From the NCBI GenBank assembly GCA_048941265.1, contig JBHLNT010000002.1, positions 20,087 through 84,086 of the forward strand: DNA of 64,000 nucleotides, given 5' to 3'. The position numbers and the translations under genes are program-made. The stretch is from Promethearchaeota archaeon. GTDB lineage: Archaea > Asgardarchaeota > Lokiarchaeia > Sigyniarchaeales > SOKP01. The notes below the pieces were generated by a model. The model had not been told where the DNA came from, made no database searches, and worked only from the letters and a program-made list of their open reading frames with translations. Positions 18,931 to 37,775 of this stretch are shown in pieces. Within the stretch, counting starts at the first letter, position 1, and each line of letters opens with the position of its first letter.

Positions 18931-20067
18931 TTAAATCATCTCCAAAAATGCCTCTATTCGTGTAGTTAATTGTCCCCGGATTGATTTACTATAATCGCGT
19001 TCCAAGTTCAGCACCTGAATTTCTTTTTCTTGCAGTCTATTCTTCAAAAACACAGACATGATTGAAATATGATCGCAAAATTTTATGATGTGATTTATAA
19101 CTGCCAATTTTTTACCCGTCTTTTGTTTATAGTTTTTATAAATTTTCTCAATTTGTGTAATTTTATTTTCTAAATAAAAAGGAACCGAATGATCTCCAAA
19201 TACGTTATTCTTAAATCTATGGACTAATAATTCGATTGGGTCTGAAATGGAGTTTAGAATATTATCTTCAAAAATTTGTGAAAAATATCTATTCCCAATC
19301 CACGTATCGAAAATTACAATATTCCCTCCACTTTCCTCAATTAAGTCGCCTAAATAATCCCCAATAAACACGGAGCATCCGGTTAGGATTAAGTCCTTTG
19401 AATTACATAGTCCCTGGTCTTCATTACTTATATTATCTTGAGTTAGTTTTTCTAATTCCGGCAGGAAATCAGGACCGTATAGCATTGCTTTTTGAAAAAT
19501 TTCTAATTTCTTAGTACCGCTCAACTTACTTTCATTGAGTTCAGAAAGTTTTTTCTTAAATCTATTATATTTTTTAATACTTTCTAATAAGTCATGATTG
19601 TTTATTTCAGAACCTTTTATCTTTTCTAATTGACTTTTAAAATCTAACAATTCGAGGTTATAATACTTAAACGCATTATCATCCTGGGTATAAGAGATAT
19701 AAAAGTTCAGTCTGGGAATTGAAAAATACTTTGAAATGATTTCTGACGCACATATATTAAGAACACAGTGATTCGAAATAACAAAATAATCAATCAGTTC
19801 TAAAAAATTAAATTGGCTTGGTTTTATGGAAAACAATCCAATACAACTCTGAGCAAAACTACAAGTAGATGGCGGTAAATAGTCATGGCTCGCATTCATT
19901 AACTCATCATTTCCCGCAAAGAGAAGAGTTAAAGGAAAAAAGCCTGCCGCGTCAATTAATTCTTCCGGGATATTTTCATGTGCCATAAAAGCGACAATTT
20001 TTTTTCCTTCTCGTTTTTTCTCTTTTAAGAAACTATGAAATTCAGCCAAAAATTCTGAATGATTCAT
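18931..20067 (-). CDS. 2-hydroxyacyl-CoA dehydratase-family subunit (beta/HgdB-like)
   Basis: IPEELIDAAG, STCS, NHC, KFCD and GQLTTRIEAFLEMI. ATG at 20067 preferred; TTG at 20079 is an alternative. Confidence 0.88.
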   Translation of the reverse strand: MNHSEFLAEFHSFLKEKKREGKKIVAFMAHENIPEELIDAAGFFPLTLLFAGNDELMNASHDYLPPSTCSFAQSCIGLFSIKPSQFNFLELIDYFVISNHCVLNICASEIISKYFSIPRLNFYISYTQDDNAFKYYNLELLDFKSQLEKIKGSEINNHDLLESIKKYNRFKKKLSELNESKLSGTKKLEIFQKAMLYGPDFLPELEKLTQDNISNEDQGLCNSKDLILTGCSVFIGDYLGDLIEESGGNIVIFDTWIGNRYFSQIFEDNILNSISDPIELLVHRFKNNVFGDHSVPFYLENKITQIEKIYKNYKQKTGKKLAVINHIIKFCDHISIMSVFLKNRLQEKEIQVLNLERDYSKSIRGQLTTRIEAFLEMI

Positions 20068-20073
20068 TTTTAT

Positions 20074-20134
20074 ATTCAAAATAAAATTCTTTTATTAAAC
20101 TTTTTGACCATAAAACGAGTATGTAAAATGTTTT
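20074..20134 (+). repeat. 61-bp imperfect direct repeat, copy 1
   Basis: ATTCAAAATAAAATTCT...GAGTATGTAAAATGTTTT aligns without gaps to 21288-21348 at 54 of 61 positions (counted by hand). Confidence 0.85.
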
Positions 20135-20168
20135 GAATATAAAAATAATACAAATCAACTAATTATTC

Positions 20169-21170
20169 TTATTTCTTCTTTAATCCTTTCATGAGCTCTT
20201 GTTGTTTTTTCGCTAATTTCTGCATCCCTTTGAATGTTTGTTCTCGAGCTACAGGTGTCATATATTTCATATCCTCAATAATCTTCTTAGTGCTTTCTTG
20301 TATCCTGGAGAAAAATATTTTCTGATCTTCAGGATCTAATTGTCTTATGATATTAAAGTATTTTTCCATTAAATCTTCAGGATCTTGTGGTACCCTCCCA
20401 GATAAAAGTCCACCATCTACTTTAAGGGTTACTCCTGAAATAAAACTACTAGTATCTTCTGCTAGAAATAGGGCTGCATAAGCAATATCTTCCGGTAAAC
20501 CAGCACGTCTAATAGGCTGAAAAATGGCAAGAATTTCTTTAATAAATTCCCCAAATTTTACAGCTACTTCGGGGGATAAACCGATTCCTTGACCAAAAAT
20601 ACCAGTTGATATACCTCCCGGTGCGATTGCGTTTGCTCTAATTCCAAACGGTCCTAATTCCACAGCAGCAATTCGCGTAAGCTGTATAATTCCCGCTTTA
20701 GAAAGTGAATATGGTAGCGTGCCTAATCCCTGTTGAAAACCCGCTACGGAACTTGTAGTTATAAAACATCCTGAACCTTGTTTTTTCATAATTGGTATTG
20801 AATATTTCATAAATAAGAATGCAGCACGAAGATGAATAGCAACAGTGCGGTCAAATTCATCTGTCGGAACATCCTCAATTACTCCTACAGGACCGGGATT
20901 ACCAGCATTTGAAAATACGATGTCAAGTCTTCCGAATTTTTCTATAGCGAGATCAATAGCTTTTATTATATCGGCTTCCTGAGACACATCAGTATGAACA
21001 TAGATTGCATTAGGTCCAAGCTCCTCGGCTTTTTTTTCTCCCATTTCATCCCAAATATCAGCCATTACGACTCCTTTGGCTCCTTCTTCTATAAAGAGTT
21101 TTGAAGTGGCTCTTCCTATTCCACCGGCTGCTCCAGTTATTAATGCTACTTTTCCATCTAATCTTCCCAT
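20169..21170 (-). CDS. Short-chain dehydrogenase/reductase with a helical C-terminal extension
   Basis: TGAAGGIG, SNAG, catalytic YSLSK, NAIAPG and VDGG. Confidence 0.93.
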   Translation of the reverse strand: MGRLDGKVALITGAAGGIGRATSKLFIEEGAKGVVMADIWDEMGEKKAEELGPNAIYVHTDVSQEADIIKAIDLAIEKFGRLDIVFSNAGNPGPVGVIEDVPTDEFDRTVAIHLRAAFLFMKYSIPIMKKQGSGCFITTSSVAGFQQGLGTLPYSLSKAGIIQLTRIAAVELGPFGIRANAIAPGGISTGIFGQGIGLSPEVAVKFGEFIKEILAIFQPIRRAGLPEDIAYAALFLAEDTSSFISGVTLKVDGGLLSGRVPQDPEDLMEKYFNIIRQLDPEDQKIFFSRIQESTKKIIEDMKYMTPVAREQTFKGMQKLAKKQQELMKGLKKK

Positions 21171-21287
21171 AGATCAATTAAATGAATTATTTATTTAATA
21201 CTTTAAGAAGAAGACTTGTTAGAAACTTAATGGTTTTCTCTGTTATTTTGTCTCTCTCTTATGTTATATATAATTTTGTGATAAGTG

Positions 21288-21348
21288 ATTCAAAATAAAA
21301 TTCTATTATTTAATTTTTTGAATATAAAAAGAGTATGTAATATGTTTT
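21288..21348 (+). repeat. 61-bp imperfect direct repeat, copy 2
   Basis: See copy 1 at 20074-20134; the two copies bracket the SDR gene. Confidence 0.85.
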
Positions 21349-21378
21349 AATAAAAGGTGAATAGAATTAGAAAAGTTT

Positions 21379-22152
21379 TTAGTTTCTATCTTTTTGCGCG
21401 ATTAAAGCTGCTCCAATGGCTCCTGTAAGTTGAGGATATTCAGGTCTCACAATTTCAAAACCCAATTCCTCTTCTAAATATTTTTTAACTGCGATATTTT
21501 TCGCAACTCCACCGCAAAAAACTAAAAGTGGGGCGACTCCAATGCGTTTTGCCATTCCTGCTACTCTTCTCGCAATTGATTTATGTATTCCGCCAGCGAT
21601 TTCTACCTTAGAGATCCCTCGGGCAAAGAGAGATATAACCTCACTTTCAGCAAAAACAGTACAAGTAGAACTAATGGATGCTGGTTTTTTCGAGTTTAAA
21701 GCTAATTTCCCGAACTCATCTAAGGATACATCAAGAGCGTGGGCCATAACTTCTAAAAATCTGCCCGTTCCTGCCGCACACTTGTCATTCATCTGAAAAT
21801 CAATGACATTTCCACTCTTTTTTGAAATAACTATAGCCTTACTATCTTGACCTCCTATATCAATTACAGAATGTGCTTCCGGGAAGAAATATTGTACCCC
21901 TTTGGCATGTGCTGTAATTTCAGTAATGCGATCATCAGCAATATCGATTGAATTTCTGCCATATCCCGTCGACATGACATACACATCAGACTTTTTTAAA
22001 TTATTTTTCTCTAAGATATCATCAAATAAATTATGACCAATTCTTTTAAAATCATGAGTGGATCTATCTATACGAAAGTCAATTAAAGTACTATTATCTA
22101 AGAGCACAACTTTTGTGGCCAAGGACCCTATATCTATTCCAATAGTTTTCAA
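21379..22152 (-). CDS. CoA-substrate-specific enzyme activase (HgdC / BadF-BadG-BcrA-BcrD ATPase)
   Basis: GIDIGS, TGYGR, DIGGQDSK, MNDKCAAGTGRFLE, STCTVFAESE and GGVAKN; TTG start. Confidence 0.95.
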   Translation of the reverse strand: MKTIGIDIGSLATKVVLLDNSTLIDFRIDRSTHDFKRIGHNLFDDILEKNNLKKSDVYVMSTGYGRNSIDIADDRITEITAHAKGVQYFFPEAHSVIDIGGQDSKAIVISKKSGNVIDFQMNDKCAAGTGRFLEVMAHALDVSLDEFGKLALNSKKPASISSTCTVFAESEVISLFARGISKVEIAGGIHKSIARRVAGMAKRIGVAPLLVFCGGVAKNIAVKKYLEEELGFEIVRPEYPQLTGAIGAALIAQKDRN

Positions 22153-23834: not shown

Positions 23835-25322
23835 TTAATAAATAGTTTCACCAGTGAATCGATTGACTTTTAAATGTCTAAATCTAGCTGTGGTAACTGC
23901 TGAAAAATCTTCAATCTTTGATATCTTATTAACAATTTCTTGAGGAAGTAAATAATTAGCTAGATGTATTATCATTTGCTTTGTCTCTATACAATTAAAA
24001 AGTTTTAAACTCTCGCAAGAGTAAAATATTTCGCTCAACAAATCATAATTTGTCTGTTGTGAAAAATTACATAATTCTAAATTTCTATAAATTCTAGATA
24101 CGATGCTTTCTAAAAGATCGAATTCTTTTAATTTATCGAGTGAATTTGCCATATAATTTGAGAAAATTACATAATATGTAGATTCAGAGGAGAAAAATCC
24201 GTCACGATATTGTTTTACTCCTTCAGGAGAAATTCGTGTATCCAATTCATCAAAAATCGATTTTATTTTTTGAATTTCAATCTTTTCATATAGATTAAGA
24301 AGATGATAAATTTTGAGAATAATAACTAATTGGGAAGTCTCTAAATTTTTTAAATATGAGGGTTCAAAGAATTTTGAATCAATTATGGTTATTGGTTTAA
24401 GCTGTTCTTCTGTTAACCATAGTTTTATAAGTTCGGTAGACTTGAAATAATAGTATACTTGATCTGTTGCCTCAATGAGGGGTGCTTCAAATTCATCAAT
24501 AATTTCTTCGTAGAGGTTCAATAAAAATTCATGCACTTTTTTTTTATCGAGTTTAATACCAAAACGTTTAGCCAAATAGATACCACAGAAGTATTGATCA
24601 GGATTTTTTAAGTTAACTAATGGAATTGATTCTAACCATTCATCAACATTATTTTTAATATAGTTTTTAATATGTGAAAAATCAAAAATTCTTTGCATAT
24701 AAACAAAATCAATAATCCTATAAATAAGATATATTAACTGTAATTTATCTCGAGGACTATCTAAGTCCTCTAGACTTTCTATTTTATTTTTATTTTCGCT
24801 AAATTTTTGAATAATATTTTCTTGAATTTGAATATATTTTCTTAAATTTTCTTTCTTCTTGGGATTTTGATCGTATGAATTTTTTAAATTTCGCAATTCT
24901 AAAATAAATTCAATCGGGAGAAGTCCCTCAGACTTTAAGTACAGCATTATTGCTCCTGTATCTATGTCAGCAAGATAATGAAAAATTTTCTCCAAAAAAA
25001 TTTCATATACAAGAGGAGCGATTTTTTTTTTATATAGGTCAATTATAGTAATAATTTCCTTTTTTTCATTTTTATTAATTATTAAGAAATGATTTGAAGT
25101 TTTATTTTCAAATTCATTTGGTTTAAAACCCAATTTAATAAATTCTTTTTCAAGTATTGATACTGATTCTTTAAGTTTTTTAGATAAATCATTATTTTTT
25201 TTTATTGATTCTTCAAAAATATTACTAATTTTATCTTGAAAATATCTATCGATTTTATCATAAAAAAATTCTTCTTGAGTAGAATACAATTCTAAGATAT
25301 TGAAGAGTCCCTGAAAAATCAT
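23835..25322 (-). CDS. Hypothetical 495-aa helical protein, paralogue of 3119..4606
   Basis: Same length and colinear conserved blocks as 3119..4606. Confidence 0.8.
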   Translation of the reverse strand: MIFQGLFNILELYSTQEEFFYDKIDRYFQDKISNIFEESIKKNNDLSKKLKESVSILEKEFIKLGFKPNEFENKTSNHFLIINKNEKKEIITIIDLYKKKIAPLVYEIFLEKIFHYLADIDTGAIMLYLKSEGLLPIEFILELRNLKNSYDQNPKKKENLRKYIQIQENIIQKFSENKNKIESLEDLDSPRDKLQLIYLIYRIIDFVYMQRIFDFSHIKNYIKNNVDEWLESIPLVNLKNPDQYFCGIYLAKRFGIKLDKKKVHEFLLNLYEEIIDEFEAPLIEATDQVYYYFKSTELIKLWLTEEQLKPITIIDSKFFEPSYLKNLETSQLVIILKIYHLLNLYEKIEIQKIKSIFDELDTRISPEGVKQYRDGFFSSESTYYVIFSNYMANSLDKLKEFDLLESIVSRIYRNLELCNFSQQTNYDLLSEIFYSCESLKLFNCIETKQMIIHLANYLLPQEIVNKISKIEDFSAVTTARFRHLKVNRFTGETIY

Positions 25323-25492
25323 TTTAAGAAAAATTACTCCATTTACTATAAAAATTAAAAAACTTTTACCATAAATATTTTATTTTTGTATAAAAAAAGA
25401 CAAGTATTAAAAAAAATCAGAAACTTAAGAGAAGTTTTCCTTCTTTTTCTTTTAAAATTGAGGTATATAAGGTTGTTTTTGCGATAATACTT

Positions 25493-27316
25493 TTAACTGT
25501 AAAAAGAATATAATTTGTGAATTAATCTATTTTTTATATTTTCAATTTTATCAAAGTCATCATTTAAAATTGATTTACCCATACTCAAGATATTATTTAA
25601 GAGCTCATTATCTAATAAATCTTCAACATAAATTCCAAGTTTATTTAGTTCTTTACCCTGATTATAAAGTATAAGCATAATTTTTATAATTCCCAATAAT
25701 TTTTTGAAATCTGTATAAACCTCTACCTCAGTAAAAGCATTTTGTATTAAAAATCCATTTCTAATAATTTTTGCGATAAATATATCGAAATTTTGATTCT
25801 CAAATTCATTACTTTCTCCTGTTATTTGAGAGACTAATTTAAGTTCATTTTCTTTACTTAAAATTTCATTTATCTGATTGCGACATTCAAACCAATCTAA
25901 ATCTATCTCATCCCATTTTATATCTCTTTCATTCCACCACTCTTTAAGATATTCTGGATAGTTTGAATATGAATTTAGCCAATCGATTGCAGGATATTGC
26001 TTTAAGTAAGCTAATTTAGAATCCAATGCCCAAATTCCTTGAACAACACGTTTAGTCGCTGCCGTAACCGGCTCATTAAAGTCTCCTCCTGGAGGAGAGA
26101 TAGAACCAATAATAGTTAAAGAACCTCTCATATCATTCCCCGATGGATCTTTCCCTAAAGTTTTAATTACTCCAGCGCGTTCGTAAAAGCTTGAAAGTTT
26201 TGAAGGTAAATAAGCAGGATACCCTTCCTCTGCGGGCATTTCTTCTAATAAACTTGATATTTCTCTCAATGATTCTGCCCATCTTGATGTGCTATCTGCT
26301 ATGATAGCAACATCATATCCCATATCTCGGTAGTATTCAGCTATAGTCACTCCTGAAAAAAGACTTGCTTCTCGTGCGGAAACAGGCATATTTGAAGTAT
26401 TAGCAATGACAATTGTTCGATTTATTAGCGGTTGCTTACTCTTAATATCAATTTTTTCCATAAATTGCTGTAAAATATTCGCAATTTCATTTCCTGGCTC
26501 TCCACATCCTATATAGATGATTATATCTGCATTACAACATTTAGCGATATTTTGTTGGATAACAGTTTTACCAGTTCCAAATCCTCCGGGAACAGCAAAA
26601 GTACCACCCATTGCTATTGGAAATAATAAATCAATTGTTCTTATTCCTGTCAGTAAAGGTTTATCTGGAGTTAGTCTCTTTTTAAACGGTCTTCTTTTAG
26701 TAATGGGCCATTTTTGGAGCATAAATAGAGATTTTTCCGCACCATTTTTTTTTAATCTATAAATTTCATCAATTATAGTATAATCTCCCTCTTTTGCTAT
26801 AAAGGATAATGTTCCAGAAGAATCATAGGGAGCTAAAATTTTATGCTCTATGGTTTGAGTTTCTCGAACAGTTCCAATTACATCTCCCCCTAATATTTTA
26901 TCATTAAGCTTTTTTTCGGGAATAAAATGCCACTTACTTTTCCGTGATAGAGGTTTGAATTCTGAACCTCTCTTTAAGGTACCTTCTCTATATTTTTGAA
27001 AAGTTAATTCTAAAGGTCTTTGAATCCCATCAAACACATGCGATAAAAGACCAGGTGCTAATTCCATAGATAAAGGTTCTCCCAAGGTAATTACTTCTTC
27101 TTTTAATTTTAAATTTGAAGTATTCTCAAAACATTGAGCAATTAAAGAATCCTTATTTATTTGAATTACTTCACTTAAAATATTGTGATTAACAATCTTA
27201 ATTAAATCATAAAGACGTACTTGTTTTTTTAAACCCTTTACCTCTATTAAAGTACCATGAATAGCAGAAATAAACCCATGATTTAAATTTTCTTCATATT
27301 CGGTCATTATCTTCAA
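25493..27316 (-). CDS. atpA: A/V-type ATPase subunit A, second divergent copy (GEPGNE variant)
   Basis: Walker [41 protein letters not shown] and QNAF; GCGEPGNE replaces GCGERGNE. Confidence 0.93.
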   Translation of the reverse strand: MKIMTEYEENLNHGFISAIHGTLIEVKGLKKQVRLYDLIKIVNHNILSEVIQINKDSLIAQCFENTSNLKLKEEVITLGEPLSMELAPGLLSHVFDGIQRPLELTFQKYREGTLKRGSEFKPLSRKSKWHFIPEKKLNDKILGGDVIGTVRETQTIEHKILAPYDSSGTLSFIAKEGDYTIIDEIYRLKKNGAEKSLFMLQKWPITKRRPFKKRLTPDKPLLTGIRTIDLLFPIAMGGTFAVPGGFGTGKTVIQQNIAKCCNADIIIYIGCGEPGNEIANILQQFMEKIDIKSKQPLINRTIVIANTSNMPVSAREASLFSGVTIAEYYRDMGYDVAIIADSTSRWAESLREISSLLEEMPAEEGYPAYLPSKLSSFYERAGVIKTLGKDPSGNDMRGSLTIIGSISPPGGDFNEPVTAATKRVVQGIWALDSKLAYLKQYPAIDWLNSYSNYPEYLKEWWNERDIKWDEIDLDWFECRNQINEILSKENELKLVSQITGESNEFENQNFDIFIAKIIRNGFLIQNAFTEVEVYTDFKKLLGIIKIMLILYNQGKELNKLGIYVEDLLDNELLNNILSMGKSILNDDFDKIENIKNRLIHKLYSFYS

Positions 27317-27334
27317 AAGTACGTTTCCTATTAT

Positions 27335-27769
27335 TCAAGTTCCTATATTTTCACCACAATTAGGACATTTTTTTGCAAATCCCGGGACAATTATTCCACA
27401 ATTACTACACTTACGAATAATTGGTTTGCGATATTTAGATTGAATATTTATAGTATCAATTCTCCTTTGCTGAGGATGATATTTTTCATACACGCTTAAA
27501 AAATCTTCTTTGGATGTATTTTTTGAGTTATTTTTATTTTTCTTAAACATGGAAAAAAAAGGTTTACTTTTATCTCTGACTAACACGCCTATAAAAACTA
27601 AAGTTGGAAAAAGCATTATTAACAGGGCAAGTAAAAGAGAAGCCCCAAGGTTCATTAAAACAGTATATAATTCATATAGAAAAATTATAAATACAATTAT
27701 CGAAATTACTTTAATGAGATTACGTTTCCAAGACTTCTTTCTTTTTACATCAGTATTTACAACTGTCAT
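27335..27769 (-). CDS. Two-TM membrane protein with a C-terminal zinc ribbon
   Basis: Two hydrophobic helices and CSNCG...CPNCG; co-oriented inside the ATPase gene run. Confidence 0.8.
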   Translation of the reverse strand: MTVVNTDVKRKKSWKRNLIKVISIIVFIIFLYELYTVLMNLGASLLLALLIMLFPTLVFIGVLVRDKSKPFFSMFKKNKNNSKNTSKEDFLSVYEKYHPQQRRIDTINIQSKYRKPIIRKCSNCGIIVPGFAKKCPNCGENIGT

Positions 27770-27788
27770 GTTCTATTTAATTAATTTT

Positions 27789-30083
27789 TTAAAAAAATTT
27801 CTTAGAAATATAATTCTTTGCCATTTCAATTTCTTTTCTAGTTTCTTCAGATTCAATTTCTTTTTCAATTTCTTTGGAGACTACATCCTTCACAGCATCA
27901 ATATTGAACGAAATTTGAGAAAAGTCACTTTTTAAAATGAGAGGGACAAAATCAACTCCTCTTCCTTCATAAAATTTAAAAAAGAATTCATAAAAATGTA
28001 ACCTTATTGCATTTAAAAATACAAGTATTCCCTCTAAAAGAATTACTAAAATATTCCCTAAAATTAAACCAATTATTATTAGTACCTGTACAAGTATTGA
28101 CTCTTGGTTTGGTAAAATGTTAATCATAGCTTCTATAGCAAGCATTAAAGATAAATGCGCTAATAACAAAGCTAATAATCGTGTATAAGAAAGAACGTTA
28201 CTCGGAACAGATAAAACAGTTTCAAAAGTATCCATTGATCCTTCTCCCAATAATGCACCATATGTCTGTTCTTTCATATATGAGATACCAATCAATTTCC
28301 CAAAGGGTTTAAATAGTAATAGTAAAATTCCGGGGAGTATGGGCAGTAAAATAGGAGGAAAAGGAGTAGGAGGAACAGGTGTGAGCCATGCATTAAAATT
28401 TATCCCCCATACAAAAATTAATACAATCCCTCCATCTAAAAATAGCATTTTCATTAAGGTTTCGGTAAATGCTTGATATTTTTTAGATGCTTTCCATAAG
28501 TTTATAATTTGAAGAAGCCATCCTAAGTTAAGATGAAAAACTCCAATAAATATAGCCATAATAAAGATAGTCATGATGTTATTTATAGGATTATAAAAGG
28601 TTATAGGTCCAATAAAGGGGAGGGGTATTTGAACAGGCATTAAATGATATCCTAAAATCTCTTCAGTGCCAAAAAATTCACCATAAAGAAACCCTACTAA
28701 AATTGCCCATAATCCACACCAAAAAATTATCCAAGAAAAATTAACATAATCTCCACCTCGTTTTTTAAAAACTCTTGAACCGACAATTCCAGCAATAGCT
28801 AAAACTAATCCATGTCCAATATCTCCAAACATGATTCCAAATAACAAGGGAAACGTAATAAATAAAAATGGGGTAGGATCTATTTCAGAATAAGAGGGGA
28901 TTCCATACATTCTCGTTAAAGTTTCAAAAGGTCTTATTATCCGATTGTGTTTCATCATCGTTGGGGTCTCATCCATAATATCTTTCTGTGCTCCTGAATC
29001 TTCCTCTTTTTCCTTAACTACCTTTTTAGGAGCAGCTCCAGATCTTATTGATTTATCTTCTGATGAGCTTTGAGTATCTAAATCTTCAGTTATTTGACCT
29101 CTTTTCTCGATATTAAATACTCTAACATTTATTTTTTGACCGTAATTATCATATAACGTCTTTTTTACTTCTTCTTTTTTCATTAGAGGTACAAAAAATC
29201 TAAATCTAAGACGATTAAATGATAAATCTTCAAATTGTTTTTCTGCCCAGCTAAATTCTTCAAGATTATATACAACTTCATTTATAGCAGCAAATTTTGG
29301 TAAATTATCGTCTCTGATTCTTTTTAATTCCATTTCATATTTCGTTAATGTATTTTCTATGACATCAATTTCTCTATTAACTCGTAAGAAATTTATACCA
29401 TCAGAATTCAAATATTTTTTTAATATAGGAACTTCTTCTGCATGGACGACTCCAAGTCTTTCTCTGAAATCTTTTTCTCTGTCTTTTGGATACACTATAA
29501 AAAAAACTATTCTATCGGTTGAAATAACTTGCGTGCGAATTATATTAGGAAATTCAGTGAATTCAAAAACTGTCTTTAAGTTGGGTAAATTTTTTGAAAA
29601 AGTTGTATATGCTTGAATATTAAAGTAATTTAGTTTTGAGAGGTTATTACGTGATAAATTAATTGTATCAAGGAGTTGATATGTTTCATTTATGATTTTT
29701 ATTTTTTCAAATTCTATTTGTGTTGTTGAAATATATTTTTCTAATTCATTGAAACGATTTGTATAAAAATATACTTCTTCTAAAAGATTAGTAATAAGTT
29801 CTGATGAGTCTTTTGCTGTAAAATCAATTTTTACTTTACTTGTTAACCTAATTTCATTAAAATCATTTTCATAAATATTTAGTTTTTTGAATAAGTTATC
29901 TAAATTCACTCTTAAACTTATAATATCCTCCTTTTTAGTACTCTCTTCCTTTTGATAAATTGGTTTTGATTTTATATGAATAGCTTTTAATTCGGCAAGT
30001 TTAATTAATAAAAGTTCTTGATATCTCTCGTCTATAATTATATTGAAAAGACACATTTCATTAGTAACTTTCATTTTTCCCAT
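27789..30083 (-). CDS. atpI: A/V-type ATPase subunit I (a)
   Basis: YG.P.Y.EIDPT, FGIMFGDIGHG, SNVLSYTRLLAL (essential Arg) and RLHFYEFF.KFYEG. Confidence 0.95.
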   Translation of the reverse strand: MGKMKVTNEMCLFNIIIDERYQELLLIKLAELKAIHIKSKPIYQKEESTKKEDIISLRVNLDNLFKKLNIYENDFNEIRLTSKVKIDFTAKDSSELITNLLEEVYFYTNRFNELEKYISTTQIEFEKIKIINETYQLLDTINLSRNNLSKLNYFNIQAYTTFSKNLPNLKTVFEFTEFPNIIRTQVISTDRIVFFIVYPKDREKDFRERLGVVHAEEVPILKKYLNSDGINFLRVNREIDVIENTLTKYEMELKRIRDDNLPKFAAINEVVYNLEEFSWAEKQFEDLSFNRLRFRFFVPLMKKEEVKKTLYDNYGQKINVRVFNIEKRGQITEDLDTQSSSEDKSIRSGAAPKKVVKEKEEDSGAQKDIMDETPTMMKHNRIIRPFETLTRMYGIPSYSEIDPTPFLFITFPLLFGIMFGDIGHGLVLAIAGIVGSRVFKKRGGDYVNFSWIIFWCGLWAILVGFLYGEFFGTEEILGYHLMPVQIPLPFIGPITFYNPINNIMTIFIMAIFIGVFHLNLGWLLQIINLWKASKKYQAFTETLMKMLFLDGGIVLIFVWGINFNAWLTPVPPTPFPPILLPILPGILLLLFKPFGKLIGISYMKEQTYGALLGEGSMDTFETVLSVPSNVLSYTRLLALLLAHLSLMLAIEAMINILPNQESILVQVLIIIGLILGNILVILLEGILVFLNAIRLHFYEFFFKFYEGRGVDFVPLILKSDFSQISFNIDAVKDVVSKEIEKEIESEETRKEIEMAKNYISKKFF

Positions 30084-30088
30084 CCTAA

Positions 30089-30733
30089 CTATGTTATAAT
30101 CTCTTTTTTAACTAAATTTTTTGTTTTTTTCAACCTCACAAAATTTTCTCTATCAAGCTCTTCTAAAGTATTTTTAATTGTTTTTATATTCGATTCTAAT
30201 TCAGGTTTGACTACATTCCTTATCCCATTTATTCTTCTGCTTATTTTTTTAAAATTAAATGCAAGCTTTAACATAATATTTTCTTTTTCAGCAAATAAAA
30301 TGAGTTTATTAAAAAAGTCCTTTAAAACGAGGATTAGATCATCAAGCTGAGGGCTTGTGTTGTCAAATGAATATGAGGGAAGCTTTTTTTCTTGTTTTAA
30401 TTCATAATTAATATAATGAAATAAAATCCCAATCTCTTTTTTATATTTGATGTTAATTATTGGTTTAAACTGGATTTCACTAATCTTACTTATTAATTTA
30501 ATTCTCCGCTTTCCCATTTCCTTATACGCATTATTTAAGGTTAATAAAGATTTTCTATACAAATCATAAAAATTATATTGAGAAATTTTATAATCTGACC
30601 AAGTATGGTTAATTTGTTCCATTAATTGTTCTTGTTTATATTCTAAAAAATTTTCTCCTTTTTTAACAAATTCCAACTGTTTCATTAACTTAATTAAATT
30701 GGTTTTTGTTTGATTTAATTTTTTAAAACTAAT
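30089..30733 (-). CDS. atpD: A/V-type ATPase subunit D
   Basis: C-terminal RRINGIRNVV.P.L...I...LEELDRENFVRLK. Start extended from ATG at 30685 to ATT at 30733 because the upstream codons encode QTKTNLIKL, matching the family PTRxxLxxL segment, behind a GGTG SD. Confidence 0.88.
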   Translation of the reverse strand: MSFKKLNQTKTNLIKLMKQLEFVKKGENFLEYKQEQLMEQINHTWSDYKISQYNFYDLYRKSLLTLNNAYKEMGKRRIKLISKISEIQFKPIINIKYKKEIGILFHYINYELKQEKKLPSYSFDNTSPQLDDLILVLKDFFNKLILFAEKENIMLKLAFNFKKISRRINGIRNVVKPELESNIKTIKNTLEELDRENFVRLKKTKNLVKKEIIT

Positions 30734-30736
30734 ATT

Positions 30737-32128
30737 TTACACCTTTGATGGATAATATTTCTCAATTAACTCTCGATGAATTCGATACAATTGATTTTGT
30801 GGAATGTTAGCGAGAACTTCCCATCCTATTGAAAAAGTACTTACAAAATTCCGATTTTCCTCAAATGATTGATTTAAAAATTTTCTCTCAAATTCTTCTC
30901 CAAATTTTAATAGTGCCTTTTGATCCAAATTAAGACTATCTTCTCCAACTATTGATATTAAATCTCGGACTTCAAGTGAACTTGAATAAGAAGCTAGTAA
31001 TTGAGAGCTAATATCCGCGTGATCTTCTCTTGTATTTTCTTTTCCTATTGCATCTTTCATTAGTCGCGAAATTGAAGCTAAGACGTCGAACGGGGGATAG
31101 ATCCCCTTTTTTTGTAAACTACGATTAAGGACTAATTGTCCTTCAGTGATATAACCGGTTGTGTCGGGGATAGGATGAGAAATATCATCATTCGGCATTG
31201 TTAAAATTGGAATTTGGGTAATAGACCCTTTTTTACCCTTTATTTTTCCTGTTCTTTCATAAATGGATGCTAAATTAGAATATAGATACCCTGGATATCC
31301 TTTTCTGCTCGGAATTTCCTCCTTAGCTGTACTTAGTTCTCTTAAAGCTTCGCAATAATTAGTCATATCAACTAAAATCACTAAAACATGCATATCTTTT
31401 TCAAATGCGAAATATTCTGCTGTTGTTAGCGCAACATTTGGTATAATCAATCGTTCCATTACAGGATCATCTGCAAAATTAATAAATGAAATTATATTTT
31501 GTATATTTCCGCTCTGTTGAAAACGATCCATAAAAAAAATTGCCTCATCCTGTATAATTCCAATTCCACAAAAAATTACTAAAAAAGGTTCTCCTGTTAA
31601 GACTTTCGCTTGGGTTACTATTTGGGCAGCAACTCTATTATGTGGTAATCCCTGACCACTAAAAATAGGAAGTTTTTGACCTCTTATTAATGTAAATAAA
31701 CCATCAATTGTAGATATTCCTGTCTGTATAACTTCTGAAGGATATTGTCTAGCAAATGGATTTATGGGAGCCCCATTAATATCTCGCTCAACATCAGTTA
31801 AAATATCGGATTCCAAAACTTTTTTCGTATAGATATCAATTGGCCTACCTAAAGAATTAAAAACACCACCTAACATATCATTTGAAATTTTTGCTTTAAA
31901 AGAATCTTCTGTAAAAATGACTTCTGAATTATCTGAAGATAATCCTTTTGTATCCTCAAAAACTTCAACTACAATTATATTCTCATCAATTTTTACCACT
32001 TGTCCAATTCGATCTTGTTGACCATCTGTATGGATATTTACAATTTCTCCATATTGCACACTATGATCATTTTCTATAAATAATAATGGCCCTGCAATTT
32101 GTCTTATTTTATTATAGCTAATACTCAT
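30737..32128 (-). CDS. atpB: A/V-type ATPase subunit B
   Basis: [47 protein letters not shown] and SRLMK. Confidence 0.97.
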
Positions 32129-32130
32129 CT

Positions 32131-33963
32131 TTATCTCATCATACTATAAGAGTGTTTTAATGCTTCAATTTCATTAATTAATTTTTCTTTAATTCTCTCT
32201 ATTTTATAAAACTCATCATTAGGGATTGATTTTCCAATCCCCAAAATATCATTGATGATTTCAAGATCTTTGATTTCTTCAATAATAATTCCTTCATCTA
32301 AGAGATTTTTAGCTTCTTTATATAACAAAAGTATAATTTTTATATGACCAAACAACTTATTAACATCTGAATAATTGTCTATACTATCAAATGCATTTTG
32401 AATAAGAAAACTTTCTCTAATTAACTTCGCTATAAAAAGATCCAACTGCTGGTCTTCTGGTAAATTTTCTTCTCCTATTAATTGAACAACATTTTTTAAA
32501 TTATTTTCTCTTGATAAAATTTCATTTACTTCATTACGGCACTCAATCCAATCGATATCGATCTGGTTCCAGTCAATGTTTCTTTTGTCCCACCAAGTAG
32601 AAATATAGTCTGGATAGTTGGAATATGAATCAAGCCAATTTAATGCAGGATAATGTTTAGCATATGCTAATCTGGCATCCAAAGCCCAAAAAGCCTGAAC
32701 AAAACGTTTAGTGGTAGCTGTAACTGGTTCACTAAAATCTCCTGAAGGAGGTGATACAGATCCAATAATAGTTAGTGAACCCATGCTTTCTTCTGCCAAT
32801 TCATTATTTCCTAAAGTTTTCACTATTCCTGCTCTTTCATAAAAGCTTGAAAGTTTTGAGGGCAAATATGCAGGATATCCTTCTTCTGCAGGCATTTCTT
32901 CCAATAAGCCAGAAATTTCTCTCAGTGATTCAGCCCATCTTGAGGTACTATCGGCCATAAGTGCTACATCATATCCCATATCTCTAAAATATTCTGCAAT
33001 CGTTATTCCCGAAAAAATACTCGCTTCTCGAGCAGATACTGGCATGTTTGAAGTATTTGCTATAATTATAACTCGTTCTAGTAATGGACGACCGCTTCGA
33101 GGATCGACTAATTTTGAAAATTCTTTTAAGCTATCAGCAATTTCATTTCCTCTTTCGCCACAACCAACGAAAACAATAACATCAGCATCACACCATTTAG
33201 CTAATGATTGTTGAATCACAGTTTTGCCTGTACCAAATCCTCCTGGAACTGCTACAGTACCACCTTTAGCTACTGGAAATAATAAATCAATTACACGAAT
33301 TCCCGTAATTAACGGAACTTTTGGAGTTTCTTTTTTATAGAAAGGTCTTTTTCTCGTGATTGGCCATTTTTGTATCATGTCATAAGTCTTTTCTTTCCCA
33401 TCTTTCTGTAGTGTATAAATCTTATCTTCTATTGTATAATCTCCCTCATCTCTTATAAAACTTAAAAATCCAGATTCCCCTGGAGGAATTAAAATAAAAT
33501 GTCTAACTGAAGCTGTCTCTTGCACATAACCAATTTTATCTCCCTCGAATACTTCTTCTTTTTTATTTTTTAACGGTATAAAGTGCCATTTTTTCTTCCT
33601 CGACAAGGATGGTACTTGAATCCCCCTTTCTAAAAATCCCATTTCAAATTGCTCATAAATATTTTCTAATGGTCTTTGAATACCATCAAAAATTTTTCCC
33701 AAAAGACCTGGAGCTAATTCCATAGATAAAGATTCTTTTAGATCAACAACATCTTCATATAATACCATATTATTGGTATTCTCATAACATTGAACAACTA
33801 TTCTATCATTATATATTTGAATAACTTCTCCTAAAACATTATGTTTTGAAACTCTAACTAAATCATGAAGTCGAATTTCGTGTTCCAAACCTTTAATTTC
33901 GATTAAAGATCCATTTATGGCAGAGATATATCCTAGATTCAAAACATTATTCGATTTGGTCAT
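32131..33963 (-). CDS. atpA: A/V-type ATPase subunit A (canonical catalytic copy)
   Basis: [32 protein letters not shown] and [11 protein letters not shown]. Confidence 0.97.
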
Positions 33964-34627
33964 ATTTACTCAAATATTCCTCAATATTCCTTTTTTTATC
34001 ATTTATTAATTTTTCAAATTCATTTTCTAATTTTTTATATTCATCGTCGGTAATCAAGTTAGAAAATTGCATTTCAATTAGGGTTTTTTGTAAATTTATT
34101 AAATGATTTATTGTGTAATCATAAGAAACTATCGCATTTTTTCTTGATATCTTAAATCCTCCAATAAAACCACTTGAATCTTCTTTAATAATTACTTTGT
34201 TTTTAAATAATTTCTCAATTTTTTCGGAATTTTTTATAAAATATTTATAATCATTTGAATTAAACAGGATTATAATTTCAGGAGGAGAATCAATATTTTT
34301 ACTAATATTTTTAATATAATTCAATAAAAAATCAATGTAATGGGAGTAATTTTTTTTAATTCTCGCTTTAATTGAGTCTAGAAGAGTTACTTTGAAATCT
34401 TTTAGCAAACTATTTTTTAAACTTAAAATCCTTTCCTTTGCTTTTAAAAGTACTGTTGTTATTTGTGTATTTAAGAATTGGTTATAAGCTTCAACAAAAC
34501 TTTGCCTAATTTTCATAGAACTATTATTTCCTTGTTCAGTATTTTTTTTTCTAATTTTCGCTTTTTGAAATAAGGTTTGCTTATGTATTTCACTAATTTC
34601 TAGCTGAGCTCTTTCTACCAAATACAT
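33947..34627 (-). CDS. atpE: A/V-type ATPase subunit E (probable true start ATT at 34672)
   Basis: Long N-terminal helix and C-terminal FIGGFKI...SYDYTI motif; located between F and A. Confidence 0.8.
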   Translation of the reverse strand: MYLVERAQLEISEIHKQTLFQKAKIRKKNTEQGNNSSMKIRQSFVEAYNQFLNTQITTVLLKAKERILSLKNSLLKDFKVTLLDSIKARIKKNYSHYIDFLLNYIKNISKNIDSPPEIIILFNSNDYKYFIKNSEKIEKLFKNKVIIKEDSSGFIGGFKISRKNAIVSYDYTINHLINLQKTLIEMQFSNLITDDEYKKLENEFEKLINDKKRNIEEYLSKYDQIE

Positions 34628-34686
34628 TCCTAAAGTTCCGACACTTTCTTTTAGACTTTTTTCTTTTGAAATATTAGAACACCCTT

Positions 34687-35007
34687 TTATTTTAAGATCT
34701 TTCCGATTGATTCATAAACCTTTTTTAATAATACATCCTTTTGTTCCAAATCTAAGTTAAAAATGTCTGGTAAATAAATGACAAAAGGTTTTCTTATATT
34801 TAATTTAAAATTGACTAAATACTCAATGATATCATCTGCAATATCTAAGGCAACAATGATCATTTCAATTTTAGGGTCATTTGTCAATTTTTTAAATTGT
34901 TTCATAAAATTCTCATTCTCACTAATAACTGTTCCTTCTAAACCCAACAATCCAAACATTAAAACACTTTCATCATTCCCAATTATATGAATCTTTTGTT
35001 CAGACAT
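34687..35007 (-). CDS. atpF: A/V-type ATPase subunit F
   Basis: KIHIIGNDESVLMFGLLGLEG and P..I.LPD; size and operon position fit. Confidence 0.9.
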   Translation of the reverse strand: MSEQKIHIIGNDESVLMFGLLGLEGTVISENENFMKQFKKLTNDPKIEMIIVALDIADDIIEYLVNFKLNIRKPFVIYLPDIFNLDLEQKDVLLKKVYESIGKILK

Positions 35008-35318
35008 TAAAAATCATATCCCATTTTTTTTGTAATAAGTTCTGCTAAATTATCTTTACTATTTTGATAATTTAAATCAATCTTTTTTATTGCTTCACTG
35101 AATTTTTTCTCAAACTTTTCAATATAATCATTAATTTCTTTTGAAACATCTTTTATAACCGAATTTACAAATTCATTTTTTTTTTCAAGTGTTGATTTTA
35201 AATCGTTTTCTAATTGTTCTTCTATCGATTGAATATCAGTAGAACTCTCTTCTTTTGCTTTATTAATTAAATTTTCATAAACTTTTTCTATATCACTTAA
35301 CATTTCGAAAAGATTCAT
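35007..35318 (-). CDS. A/V-type ATPase subunit H (G), peripheral stalk
   Basis: 103-aa all-helical coiled-coil protein within the ATPase operon; start/stop overlap with subunit F. Confidence 0.7.
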   Translation of the reverse strand: MNLFEMLSDIEKVYENLINKAKEESSTDIQSIEEQLENDLKSTLEKKNEFVNSVIKDVSKEINDYIEKFEKKFSEAIKKIDLNYQNSKDNLAELITKKMGYDF

Positions 35319-35359
35319 GGAGCATCGTTTCTTTTTTATAATTATATTAATTTTGTAAT

Positions 35360-36403
35360 TTACTCTAAAACACTAAATTTTTCATGAATAATTCTTACTA
35401 CATTTGGTATAATTTCATATTTAATTTCAAGTTCTTTTCTAATTATCAGTTCTAAAATTCTAAAAATTGTTAAATCATCAATATCTTGTATTTGATATCT
35501 AGACTTACTAAAAAAATAATCTTTATATATCCTTTCGAGTTTCCACATCGGACGATCTGATTCAAGGATTTGAAGGCCTTCCAGGTCTGTAATCCTTCCT
35601 AAAGTATCATTAATATATGAAAAAAAATCTTCTAAACTCTCTCGAGTTAAAAGAAACTCCATTTTTTTATCATTGAAGAAAAAATACTTATTGATTAAGA
35701 ATTGAGATAACAAATTTTTGTCTATATTATTTTTAATTCCACGATAAATTAAGTTTATATTATAAATTTCAGTAATGAATGAATCAAATAATGAAATAAT
35801 CCTTTTTTCGTTTTGATCATATGATCCTTCTCTGTTAACCAAATTTAGATAATATTGTTGATCTAAGAACGATTCTAGTACGAATACTTCATTGTAATTT
35901 TTAAAATAAAGTAGACCTTCTCGTATAGCTTTATAATATCTGGTACCCTTCATATATAATTGAATCTGTTCTAATGTTGGAATCTCAATTAAATCTTTTA
36001 TAAAATCTGTTTTTTCTAAATATTCTTCAACTAAAAAATTTACATTTCGTAGTATTTCTTCATGACTCATATTAACAATAAAACCTAAAATGATCTGTTT
36101 AATATTCATAATTTCATATTTCAGTAAATAGTCTTTTAAAAAATTTCTCATATTTAATGGAGAAAACGAAATAATTTTTCCATTTACCTTGATAAAAAAG
36201 TCATATAGTGCTAGCTCGATATTTTCAATAGTATATTCTTTAATATTTAAATCAGGATAAAAGGGTTTTATAAATTCTATAAAATCTTCTATTGTGTAAT
36301 AGTTCCCCAATTTTTTTAGTTGATCTTCATCCATTAATAATTTTTTTAAGTAGGTTGACCTGATAAATGTATACGCATAAGTCGGTACAACAACACTCGT
36401 TAA
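35360..36403 (-). CDS. atpC: A/V-type ATPase subunit C (d / AC39 family)
   Basis: KYEIMNIK, LESFLDQQYY and EIYNINLIYRG repeats. The open in-frame region upstream of ATG at 36334 encodes YAYTFIRS.YLKKLL, resembling the family N-terminus, behind an AGGTGA SD. Confidence 0.85.
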   Translation of the reverse strand, partial: LTSVVVPTYAYTFIRSTYLKKLLMDEDQLKKLGNYYTIEDFIEFIKPFYPDLNIKEYTIENIELALYDFFIKVNGKIISFSPLNMRNFLKDYLLKYEIMNIKQIILGFIVNMSHEEILRNVNFLVEEYLEKTDFIKDLIEIPTLEQIQLYMKGTRYYKAIREGLLYFKNYNEVFVLESFLDQQYYLNLVNREGSYDQNEKRIISLFDSFITEIYNINLIYRGIKNNIDKNLLSQFLINKYFFFNDKKMEFLLTRESLEDFFSYINDTLGRITDLEGLQILESDRPMWKLERIYKDYFFSKSRYQIQDIDDLTIFRILELIIRKELEIKYEIIPNVVRIIHEKFSVLE

Positions 36404-36451
36404 ATAATCACCTAAAACCTCAAAAATTTTGCAATAAATATTAAAACTCCA

Positions 36452-36835
36452 TTAAGCTGGAATATTTGGGATTTTCGTCCACAAGAGTATTGCAATGATC
36501 AGCCCGTAGACAGCAAGAGCTTCACATAAAGCTACAACTAAAAAAGCTTTAAAAAAAGCTTCTTCTCTTTCAGTCAATGTTGCTATCGCAGAGGTGCCAA
36601 CTGTTCTTAAAGCCAAACCACTTCCTAGTATACCCAAGCCTACTGCTATTCCTGCACCTAAACCAAGCATTCCTGCTGTTCCGGCTTGATAATACTTTAA
36701 ATTATCTGAGCTTGTACCCTGAGCTGCCGCAAAAATGATGATTCCGTTGACAGTGAAAAATACAACCGCAATTAAAAATAATTGGTAAAATACAAGTAAT
36801 GAATAAAATTTTTTTTTACCATTCATAAGTATCAT
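36452..36835 (-). CDS. atpK: A/V-type ATPase proteolipid subunit K (c): single hairpin plus N-terminal hydrophobic leader
   Basis: GAGIAVGLG..GSG helix and ALCEALAVYGLIIAILL with the carrier Glu. Confidence 0.93.
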   Translation of the reverse strand: MILMNGKKKFYSLLVFYQLFLIAVVFFTVNGIIIFAAAQGTSSDNLKYYQAGTAGMLGLGAGIAVGLGILGSGLALRTVGTSAIATLTEREEAFFKAFLVVALCEALAVYGLIIAILLWTKIPNIPA

Positions 36836-37108
36836 ATCGTTTTTTTTTTAGTTTATTAAGAATTATATATTAATACTTCTGTTTAAAGATTGCTATAACT
36901 TTTGATAAATTTTCATTGCTTTTTAATATCCCAAATAAGGATTAAGAAATAGAACTTATTATAACGAGTATTTCTGTTGAACATTAAGATTCTTCAATAT
37001 TGGATCTGATTTTCTTAATGTCTTCACACTACTATAAAAATTATTTAATTTTAGATTTTATTATAAAGTAAAATATATCGACTATTCTATTTTTTTATTA
37101 ATTCTTTA

Positions 37109-37146
37109 AACTCGATTATGATAATCTAACTCGATTATGATAATCT
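37109..37146. repeat. Tandem 19-bp direct repeat (AACTCGATTATGATAATCT x2); each unit contains the palindrome GATTAT-G-ATAATC
   Basis: Read directly from the sequence between the endA stop and the ATPase operon start. Confidence 0.9.
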
Positions 37147-37169
37147 ATTAATTAGGTTATTTTATTAAT

Positions 37170-37775
37170 TTATGGCTTAAACCACTCGAAGAAATAATAA
37201 CTGTTTGTTAAAGGATTCGCAATCACGAATTTTTTTCTTACTGATGTTGCTAATCTTCCGGCCCTCACCATATCAATAGCACTAATTTTTGAGTCATGTG
37301 GAAGAACATGAACAATAAAAGGAGAATGTTCCAAACCCGGGCCTTTTTTATAAACTACAAAATCTGCTCCAAATTTAAGTCCTGGTCTTGGAATATAACC
37401 TTTTTCCCTCAAATCTTTATATATTACATATTTCTCCTCAAATTTATGATGATTTTTTTTCCCAATTTCATACAGTTCTTTGCAACTTAATAATTGATTT
37501 GTTTTTACATCGAGAACAGTTATCTCATCTCTTTCAAGTAAATAATTAGCTTCTATAAGAGATAATTCTGAAGGCTTAGAGAAATATTCCAATCTGGGCT
37601 TGTTAATACCTAACGGAGATCCATAAAACCCTTTTTTTACGTATAGATAAGATGCGTAAAGAGGATTAAAAACTATAACTCTTGAATTTATAAATTTTGC
37701 GGGAATTTTTTTTGGTATATCTTCGGGATTAATATCATCCAACGAAATTTCGTTATCTGTCTCCTTACTCATCAA
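37170..37775 (-). CDS. endA: tRNA-intron endonuclease (catalytic subunit)
   Basis: LSLIEA.YL, YKDLREKGY..RPGLKFGADFVVY..GP..EHS and R.ATSVRKK, giving the Tyr/His/Lys triad. Confidence 0.95.
   Translation of the reverse strand: MMSKETDNEISLDDINPEDIPKKIPAKFINSRVIVFNPLYASYLYVKKGFYGSPLGINKPRLEYFSKPSELSLIEANYLLERDEITVLDVKTNQLLSCKELYEIGKKNHHKFEEKYVIYKDLREKGYIPRPGLKFGADFVVYKKGPGLEHSPFIVHVLPHDSKISAIDMVRAGRLATSVRKKFVIANPLTNSYYFFEWFKP

Follow-up and report, generated by a model that had tools for sequence, protein, structure and literature searches.

To our knowledge, the catalytic subunits of a rotary ATP synthase are assumed to be three identical copies. In the V1-ATPase of Enterococcus hirae, the gamma-phosphate of adenylyl imidodiphosphate (AMP-PNP) is touched by the P-loop Lys238, by Arg262 and by Arg350 of the B subunit, and Arg262 lies in the 'arm', a fixed helix spanning residues 261-275 (PMC5095293; this and the other papers given by identifier are cited from excerpts). 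In the F1 of Escherichia coli, exchange of betaArg-182 for glutamine or lysine (betaR182Q, betaR182K) leaves no ATP synthesis and no binding of inorganic phosphate (Pi), with purified ATPase activities of 0.020 and 0.250, respectively, versus 42 units; betaR182Q additionally loses the transition state, and betaArg-182 takes part in binding MgATP, not MgADP (PMC3268026). Here we analyse a 64,000-nucleotide stretch of DNA (the window; contig JBHLNT010000002.1) from a Promethearchaeota archaeon, which encodes an A-type ATP synthase together with a second gene for the catalytic A subunit, A', whose product has proline in place of the arginine that follows the catalytic glutamate. A first-pass annotation of the window had stated that this arginine binds gamma-phosphate or Pi, and both papers back that statement. 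Our sequence analysis points to a built-in non-working or regulatory catalytic subunit, apparently undescribed: we found no description of a proline-substituted A paralogue in the literature, supplementary trees and tables aside, including the excerpted texts of 10.64898/2026.10.01.756066, PMC10656485 and PMC7997004.

Several described systems resemble A' in part. With the canonical A subunit (AtpA/NtpA) of Pyrococcus horikoshii, Thermus thermophilus and E. hirae it shares the four domains, the barrel-sandwich insert, the operon setting, and the Walker A, catalytic Glu, SAREAS Arg, DSTSRWAE and QNAF motifs, and it matches the solved P. horikoshii A chains at E 9e-165. It differs from them in having proline for arginine (Arg264 in P. 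horikoshii, Arg262 in E. hirae), asparagine six residues further on and an altered GEENLPE loop, and in existing alongside a normal A as an additional copy. The B and alpha subunits are likewise ring members paralogous to the catalytic subunit, and they bind nucleotide without turnover, by the same logic of duplication followed by loss of catalysis; A', however, is nearer to A, with an intact P-loop and the catalytic Glu kept, and is young and confined to one family, whereas B and alpha are ancient. In alpha, glutamine replaces the catalytic glutamate and the neighbouring basic residue is kept. Wasteful ATP hydrolysis is limited elsewhere by bacterial epsilon, mitochondrial IF1, alphaproteobacterial zeta and MgADP inhibition, which serve the purpose that we propose for A', namely to limit hydrolysis and allow synthesis; these are small add-on proteins or a kinetic state, whereas the proposed brake would be a ring subunit itself. 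The betaR182Q and betaR182K enzymes also lack the homologous arginine next to the catalytic Glu, but they are laboratory mutants with all three sites changed, whereas A' is natural, conserved and accompanied by a normal copy, and its proline is absent from the substitutions for betaArg-182 listed in the excerpt. Finally, a hybrid F1, alpha3 beta2 beta(E190D) gamma, in which one of the three sites is impaired and the other two are normal, still turns, pausing for additional dwells at the altered site (PMC3988807), and offers a mechanical model for an A2A'B3 head, although it is artificial and F-type, and its general base is weakened with the phosphate ligand left in place.

The proline-bearing A subunit and its recurrence

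The minus strand of the window encodes, at 25493-36835, one A-type ATP synthase operon in the order K-C-H-F-E-A-B-D-I-ZnTM-A' as assigned with Pfam, where ZnTM denotes a small predicted membrane protein with a zinc ribbon. The alpha/beta ATPase family (PF00006) is represented by three genes in total in the whole genome (5.0 Mb, 361 contigs, 91% complete), namely A, A' and a single B, in agreement with the first-pass reading of two full-length A subunits and one B in this gene run. A' is 62% identical to canonical A (371/599 positions, zero gaps) and carries all four A-subunit domains (PF02874, PF16886, PF00006 and PF22919), the A-specific barrel-sandwich insert included, with Pfam scores of 239.6, 91.8, 43.6 and 27.5 bits, each above the curated cut-off. 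Its identity to B is 34% over 249 residues; together with the intact P-loop, this difference in identity led us to reject A' as a non-catalytic subunit of the B/alpha type. The open reading frame originally listed (25493-27316, 607 amino acids from TTG 27316) is indeed open, as had been claimed, but the likelier start is ATG 27307, which is favoured by the orthologues and by the best database match (604 amino acids, 92% identical) and makes A' collinear with A, so that both share the numbering E270 and P/R271 used here.

At 26509-26486 (minus strand) the DNA reads GGA TGT GGA GAG CCA GGA AAT GAA, which translates as G-C-G-E-P-G-N-E. The contrast between CCA here and AGA in the canonical copy, already noted in the first pass, can be read directly in the DNA, and Pro271 aligns with Arg264 in the P. 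horikoshii A structures. Position 271 is Pro in 40/40 A' orthologues and Arg in 45/45 A subunits of the same family, and the proline is written with four codons among the 40 A' (CCT 19, CCA 16, CCG 3, CCC 2). Only three columns are fixed differently between A' and A: Arg271 to Pro, Asp277 to Asn and Ile316 to Leu. At position 277, Asn occurs in 34/40 A' against Asp in 44/45 family A subunits, and in a database set the corresponding counts are 65/79 and 40/40. A fourth candidate, Phe421 of the family A subunits (Val or Leu in A'), was set aside, as P. horikoshii A also has Val.

The remainder of the catalytic machinery is retained in A'. The P-loop GGFGTGK is invariant in 40/40 copies, followed by Thr248 in 37/40 and by Ser in three (G017, G052 and G063). 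Also present in 40/40 are the catalytic Glu270, Gly272 and Glu274 of GxGNE (Asn273 in 39/40), Arg312 of SAREAS, and Asp338, Arg342, Trp343, Ala344 and Glu345 of DSTSRWAE, while QNAF is present in both the A and the A' of the window. The earlier observation that the distal copy keeps Walker A, the catalytic Glu and QNAF is borne out by the alignment, and the arginine directly after the catalytic Glu is the sole feature of the A-subunit catalytic and nucleotide-binding motifs that is absent from A'. Although its sequence places A' in the A-subunit family, one defining catalytic feature is missing, and A' should not be filed as a catalytic A.

A second region of divergence is the rotor-facing loop of the C-terminal domain, which we take to be the equivalent of the DELSEED loop of F1-beta. 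Canonical A has a nearly invariant GEENLPE at this site, whereas A' mostly has GEKN, GQKN or GERN, a change of Glu to Lys or Arg. The loop of the window A' had been singled out as diverged; it does differ from that of A, but divergence here is a feature of the whole A' group, and the GESNEF form seen in the window is an extreme one belonging to a more diverged A' sub-group. The largest excess variability of A' over A lies in this loop region (0.45 bits per column), and such excess is confined to it and to the helix and loop after GEPGNE. In the N-terminal barrel and the A-specific insert, A' is at least as conserved as A.

To gauge how far the motif extends, a DNA pattern for C-G-E-P-G-N-E was run over 135 genomes of the window's family, its own genome counted. 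It matched exactly once in each of 80 genomes, a lower bound for A', as the A' of G103 reads GEPGSE and falls outside the pattern, and a reversed control pattern matched in none. Among the 36 family genomes that are at least 90% complete and at most 5% contaminated, 19 have the motif. In a 400-genome sample of the phylum, the 80 genomes already found were the only ones with the motif; it occurred in 0 of the 265 genomes from 32 other families, and the control pattern matched twice in this search. The Asgard-wide search proposed in the first pass thus finds GEPGNE A subunits to be recurrent, but within one Lokiarchaeia-type family only. In a scan of one genome per prokaryotic species, 19 of the 117 stretches listed lie in an A-subunit context (15 titled Promethearchaeota or Promethearchaeia, four 'uncultured archaeon') and the remaining 98 are chance matches in unrelated frames; these figures hold among the matches listed and are no measure of absence elsewhere. 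Of the best 120 homologues in a collection of 5.8 billion proteins, 79 have Glu-Pro, 40 have Glu-Arg and one could not be parsed. Those with names are annotated 'V-type ATP synthase subunit A' of Lokiarchaeota or Promethearchaeota, and because they pass as ordinary A subunits, A' genes can mislead phylogenies and metabolic reconstructions. One Loki genome has been reported to hold both an A-type and a V-type ATPase (PMC7997004, excerpt); the latter may, as a guess, be the second copy described here.

In a metagenome-assembled genome, an oddity at one codon may simply be an error, and on that prior alone one might suspect an assembly or sequencing artefact, or else a decaying duplicate. We consider this explanation negligible in probability. 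Recurrence in 80/135 genomes through four synonymous codons refutes an artefact and is the chief confirmation that the proline is neither an error nor a one-off. The codon is also covered by contigs of three sequencing runs, which agree without any alternative letter, one of them from a variant strain with 21 listed differences, none within the Pro codon; this answers the earlier suggestion to confirm the codon in reads, though the support is weak because the single study behind these runs may be the source sample. Decay is refuted by intact frames, by dN/dS (the ratio of nonsynonymous to synonymous substitution rates) near 0.19 and by nearly equal numbers of invariant columns in the two groups, as set out below.

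Origin, selection and linkage of A'

The first-pass annotation had raised the questions whether GEPGNE A subunits form a clade under purifying selection and whether they always co-occur with a canonical A. For the first, we inferred a likelihood phylogeny from 95 A-type sequences, of which 40 are A', 46 are family A and nine come from the order's other families; the intein-bearing A of G058 was excluded. All 40 A' fall into one group (Shimodaira-Hasegawa-like approximate likelihood ratio test, SH-aLRT, 95) nested within the family A subunits; this group also holds the canonical A of two genomes of genus g8. In a test of single origin, with the trait column removed and two long rows (G125 and the second copy of G031) left out, the best tree keeping the 40 A' together had a log-likelihood 13.75 above that of a free quick search, and the p value of the approximately unbiased test (p-AU) was 0.639. 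A single origin of A' is therefore not rejected by these sequences. A and A' largely agree in their sub-groups, as expected under co-inheritance. On our best reading, A' is a paralogue that arose within one family of Lokiarchaeia-type Asgard archaea.

In genus g8 (G016 and G042; L034 and L088), A and A' are 81% identical over their full length, compared with 56-71% elsewhere. Despite this likeness, the two g8 copies remain distinct at the key sites, with Arg in one and Pro plus the loop Lys in the other. The pattern suggests homogenisation by gene conversion, or a younger duplication.

All 40 full-length A' copies used have an open frame, and the number of invariant columns is 139 in A' versus 142 in A. 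By the Nei-Gojobori method, and with the comparison restricted to those 64 of 351 genome pairs in which both genes have dS of 0.05-1.5, the median dN/dS of A' is 0.19 and that of A is 0.14, values that are rough because dS is near saturation; over all 351 pairs, dN of A' is 1.23 times that of A. On these comparisons A' is clearly a working gene held by purifying selection. It would be a young repetition of the duplication and loss of catalysis behind B and alpha, and it is found in the archaeal group closest to eukaryotes.

We compared Pro- and Arg-motif rows by hand across the family genomes. The Arg motif of canonical A was found in 112/135 of them, including 74 of the 80 with the Pro motif. 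In five of the other six, the A' contig stops short of the expected site of A, and one of these contigs (G096) even opens with the C-terminal end of an A; the sixth is from a genus in which A has GVGERGNE, a sequence that the pattern does not match. Contig ends and a pattern mismatch can account for the six exceptions to co-occurrence, and no genome with A' and demonstrably no A was found among the 80. In 55/80 genomes a single contig carries both motifs at a distance of 6.6-7.2 kb, with A' downstream of A, whereas they are on separate contigs in 18 of 74 and 861 kb apart in one (G064).

The gene order K-C-H-F-E-A-B-D-I-ZnTM-A' was seen in 20/20 operons fetched and in G021, G016 and G022. From the stop of ZnTM to the start of A' there are 0-53 nucleotides (median 32.5, 26 operons), and because this gap is so small, A' is likely co-transcribed with the upstream operon. 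Operons without A' end at ZnTM, once 39 nucleotides from the next gene; tblastn detected no A' remnants at 10 such loci, which fits loss and primary absence alike. The 861-kb separation in G064 (L101 and L102, on one 3.3-Mb contig) reflects an operon split into ...E-A-B-D and I-ZnTM-A', in which A' remains beside the stator subunit I and ZnTM.

Possible roles of A' in the ATP synthase head

On balance, we think it probable that A' is a selection-kept paralogue of A that assembles into the head beside normal A and is catalytically crippled. Because crown, insert and nucleotide core are conserved as in A and there is a single B, A' would occupy the A position of an A3B3 head, most likely together with normal A. 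Its site would bind nucleotide without gripping the gamma-phosphate or Pi, since loss of the E. coli arginine spares MgADP binding. A' appears to keep everything required for folding, for entering the ring next to B, for carriage of the peripheral stalk and for nucleotide binding, while a site that lacks the phosphate ligand would show little or no turnover. A head containing such a site would hydrolyse ATP poorly, providing a brake on ATP waste, and the rotor could still be driven through the site; with the phosphate ligand removed and the general base (Glu) kept, ATP would not be trapped and the rotor would not jam. A mixed head is mechanically plausible because the hybrid F1 with one slow beta rotates. 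The first-pass annotation had likewise suggested mixed hexamers, in which A' would act as a brake on hydrolysis or as an assembly factor.

The individual substitutions can be placed in this scheme. Proline is tolerated at the start of a helix. Located at the start of the fixed helix (limits from PMC5095293), it would strip the arginine side chain at small structural cost. The change of Asp277 to Asn may reflect the lost partner of Arg271, and the Glu to Lys change in the rotor-facing loop hints that contact with D is altered. If the assignment is right, nature itself would have carried out an experiment in symmetry breaking here, with a third type of ring subunit that is conserved and encoded in the operon; this could bring to light a new means of regulating or re-gearing ATP synthesis at the thermodynamic limit.

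A stronger version, which we hold to be improbable, is that an A2A'B3 head with one dead site makes or spends two ATP per turn instead of three, raising the ion-per-ATP ratio by half with the c-ring unchanged. With such a gear shift, energy-starved syntrophic archaea could go on producing ATP when the membrane potential is much lower, and would withstand back-hydrolysis. Since the three A-B pairs of A-type enzymes are served by two peripheral stalks, the odd position among them could be what places A' uniquely.

Several observations weigh against a crippled subunit in a mixed head. The catalytic Glu is kept in 40/40 A' although a purely structural subunit would not need it, and with it residual or altered chemistry would still be possible. 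That E. coli betaArg-182 corresponds to A position 271 is assumed from the shared Gly-Glu-Arg motif. Furthermore, A' is known here as a gene, the four sequencing runs at the locus all being DNA contigs. The retained residues could instead mean that A' is a working catalytic isoform, in which the P-loop Lys, the SAREAS Arg and the B Arg finger make up for the proline, and which replaces A under particular conditions of ion, pH, nucleotide level or substrate. Walker A, Arg312 and Asp338 are conserved along with the Glu in all 40 copies, purifying selection is strong, and three copies have Ser for Thr in the P-loop, which is a functional variant. We nevertheless find such an isoform unlikely: Arg is present in 45/45 family A subunits and in 116/132 diverse representatives, even the conservative betaR182K abolishes ATP synthesis and Pi binding (PMC3268026), no new basic residue appears among the few changes specific to the A' group, and the torque loop is altered too.

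The distribution of A' also speaks against the mixed head. A' is dispensable: 38/112 genomes with the canonical motif have no Pro motif, some of them 98-100% complete, and clean absences were seen. The A' of G017 (genus g9) is isolated among unrelated genes, and that of G052 is on a contig other than that of A. When 25 operons with A' were compared with 11 without, no column in D, F, H, I, K or ZnTM tracked A'; isolated discriminating columns occur only in B, E and C, and the clearest, Lys to Gln in RFQESG of B, is not convincing because it is confounded by relatedness. Such patchiness and unlinked copies, and the persistence of A' with I and ZnTM in the split operon of G064, would suit a protein that does not mix with A, forming all-A' heads (A'3B3) as inert, hibernating or leak-sealing caps, or acting away from the enzyme as a nucleotide sensor or assembly placeholder. 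This, too, seems doubtful to us, as the motifs for the catalytic site and for conformational change are kept beyond the needs of a cap or placeholder, A' is linked to the operon in 55/80 genomes with a short intergenic gap, and its own genome has no second B, no second D and no other dedicated partner gene for A'. We continue to favour a catalytically impaired A' within a mixed head.

The operon in the window and further observations in relatives

The features of the operon and of A' are collected in Table 1. The c subunit is a single hairpin with one carboxylate.

Table 1. Genes of the ATP synthase operon and sites within A', with positions in the window.
Feature	Position	Strand	Basis or remark
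c/K subunit, single hairpin	36452-36835	-	Pfam
C	35360-36334	-	Pfam
H/G-like coiled-coil protein, 103 amino acids	35007-35318	-	
F	34687-35007	-	Pfam
E	33947-34627	-	Pfam
Canonical catalytic A, GERGNE	32131-33963	-	Arg271 codon AGA at 33151-33153
B, sole non-catalytic subunit gene of the genome	30737-32128	-	Pfam
D, central rotor	30089-30685	-	PF01813
I, a-type stator and ion-channel subunit	27789-30083	-	PF01496
ZnTM, 144-amino-acid predicted membrane protein with C-terminal zinc ribbon	27335-27769	-	sits between I and A'
A', second A-subunit gene, last in operon	25493-27307	-	604 amino acids from ATG 27307
Walker A of A', GGFGTGKT (Lys247, Thr248)	26564-26587	-	intact
CCA, Pro271 of A' (Pro274 in 607-amino-acid numbering)	26495-26497	-	site of gamma-phosphate/Pi-binding Arg after catalytic Glu270
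AAT, Asn277 of A', inside the 'arm' helix	26477-26479	-	six residues past 271; Asp in canonical A
Rotor-facing loop of C-terminal domain of A', SQITGESNEFENQ	25793-25831	-	counterpart of GEENLPE in A

ZnTM follows I in most of the family operons examined, whether A' is present or not. It has predicted membrane helices and a C-terminal CxxC...CxxC zinc ribbon, and falls into no Pfam family at cut-off. No match to it was found in the G013 operon (L100) or in the two operons of another family that we examined (L039, L040). It may be an undescribed accessory subunit of the family's ATP synthase.

Next to A' lies a gene for a 495-amino-acid protein (23835-25322, minus strand). As a diverged B' it was rejected, having no similarity to B and no Pfam family, and it is not tied to A' because in other genomes it sits at the opposite end of the operon. 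At 23835-37775 of the window and in G145 (L087), the whole operon is inverted relative to its flanks, so that the 495-amino-acid gene adjoins A' and a tRNA-intron endonuclease gene adjoins K; elsewhere the endonuclease gene adjoins A', and the 495-amino-acid gene or a PhoU-like gene adjoins K. The gene for the 495-amino-acid protein is conserved beside the operon in several genera, and a second gene, apparently its paralogue, lies elsewhere in the window, near the window's start.

Other A subunits in the family and beyond show peculiarities of their own. The sole A of G013 (genus g5, 97% complete; L100:9124-10983) reads GCGIRGNE, with the catalytic Glu replaced by Ile and the Arg kept. Its P-loop is GAVGTGKT, its operon is otherwise complete apart from ZnTM, and the genome has this A and one B; it is either an error or represents an organism whose only A is without the general base. 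The canonical A of G058 (L099) has 1157 amino acids with a large, intein-like insertion after the P-loop region, an open frame of 1137 amino acids in G034:C65 matches A in two parts, and many diverse A representatives are likewise 900-1100 amino acids long with two matched stretches. A second, divergent and complete A/B operon occurs in G031 (L039, L040) and G125 (L096); the A that it encodes keeps the Arg, and this duplication is of another kind than the one behind A'.

The motif is covered by 132 of 150 diverse cluster representatives. Glu-Arg stands in 116 of them; the other 16 differ, in most cases through loss of the Glu. The deviating representatives (for example P0178, P0185, P0189, P0204, P0221, P0225, P0232, P0244, P0246, P0248 and P0258) include Gly-Arg, Ala-Arg, Lys-Arg, Leu-Ser, Glu-Lys, Glu-Ser, Glu-Gln and Glu-His at this site, and one cluster member is named from an Oscillospiraceae genome. 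We found neither names nor literature for such degenerate A-like proteins, and their sequences suggest that degenerate A-like subunits may be a wider, undescribed phenomenon.

Elsewhere in the window, 18931-22152 (minus strand) holds genes for a 2-hydroxyacyl-CoA dehydratase D-component, a short-chain dehydrogenase and an activator ATPase of the BcrAD/BadFG type, adjoined by a VIT-family transporter gene and a PhoU-like gene. The 18931-22152 set would, we presume, fit amino-acid fermentation.

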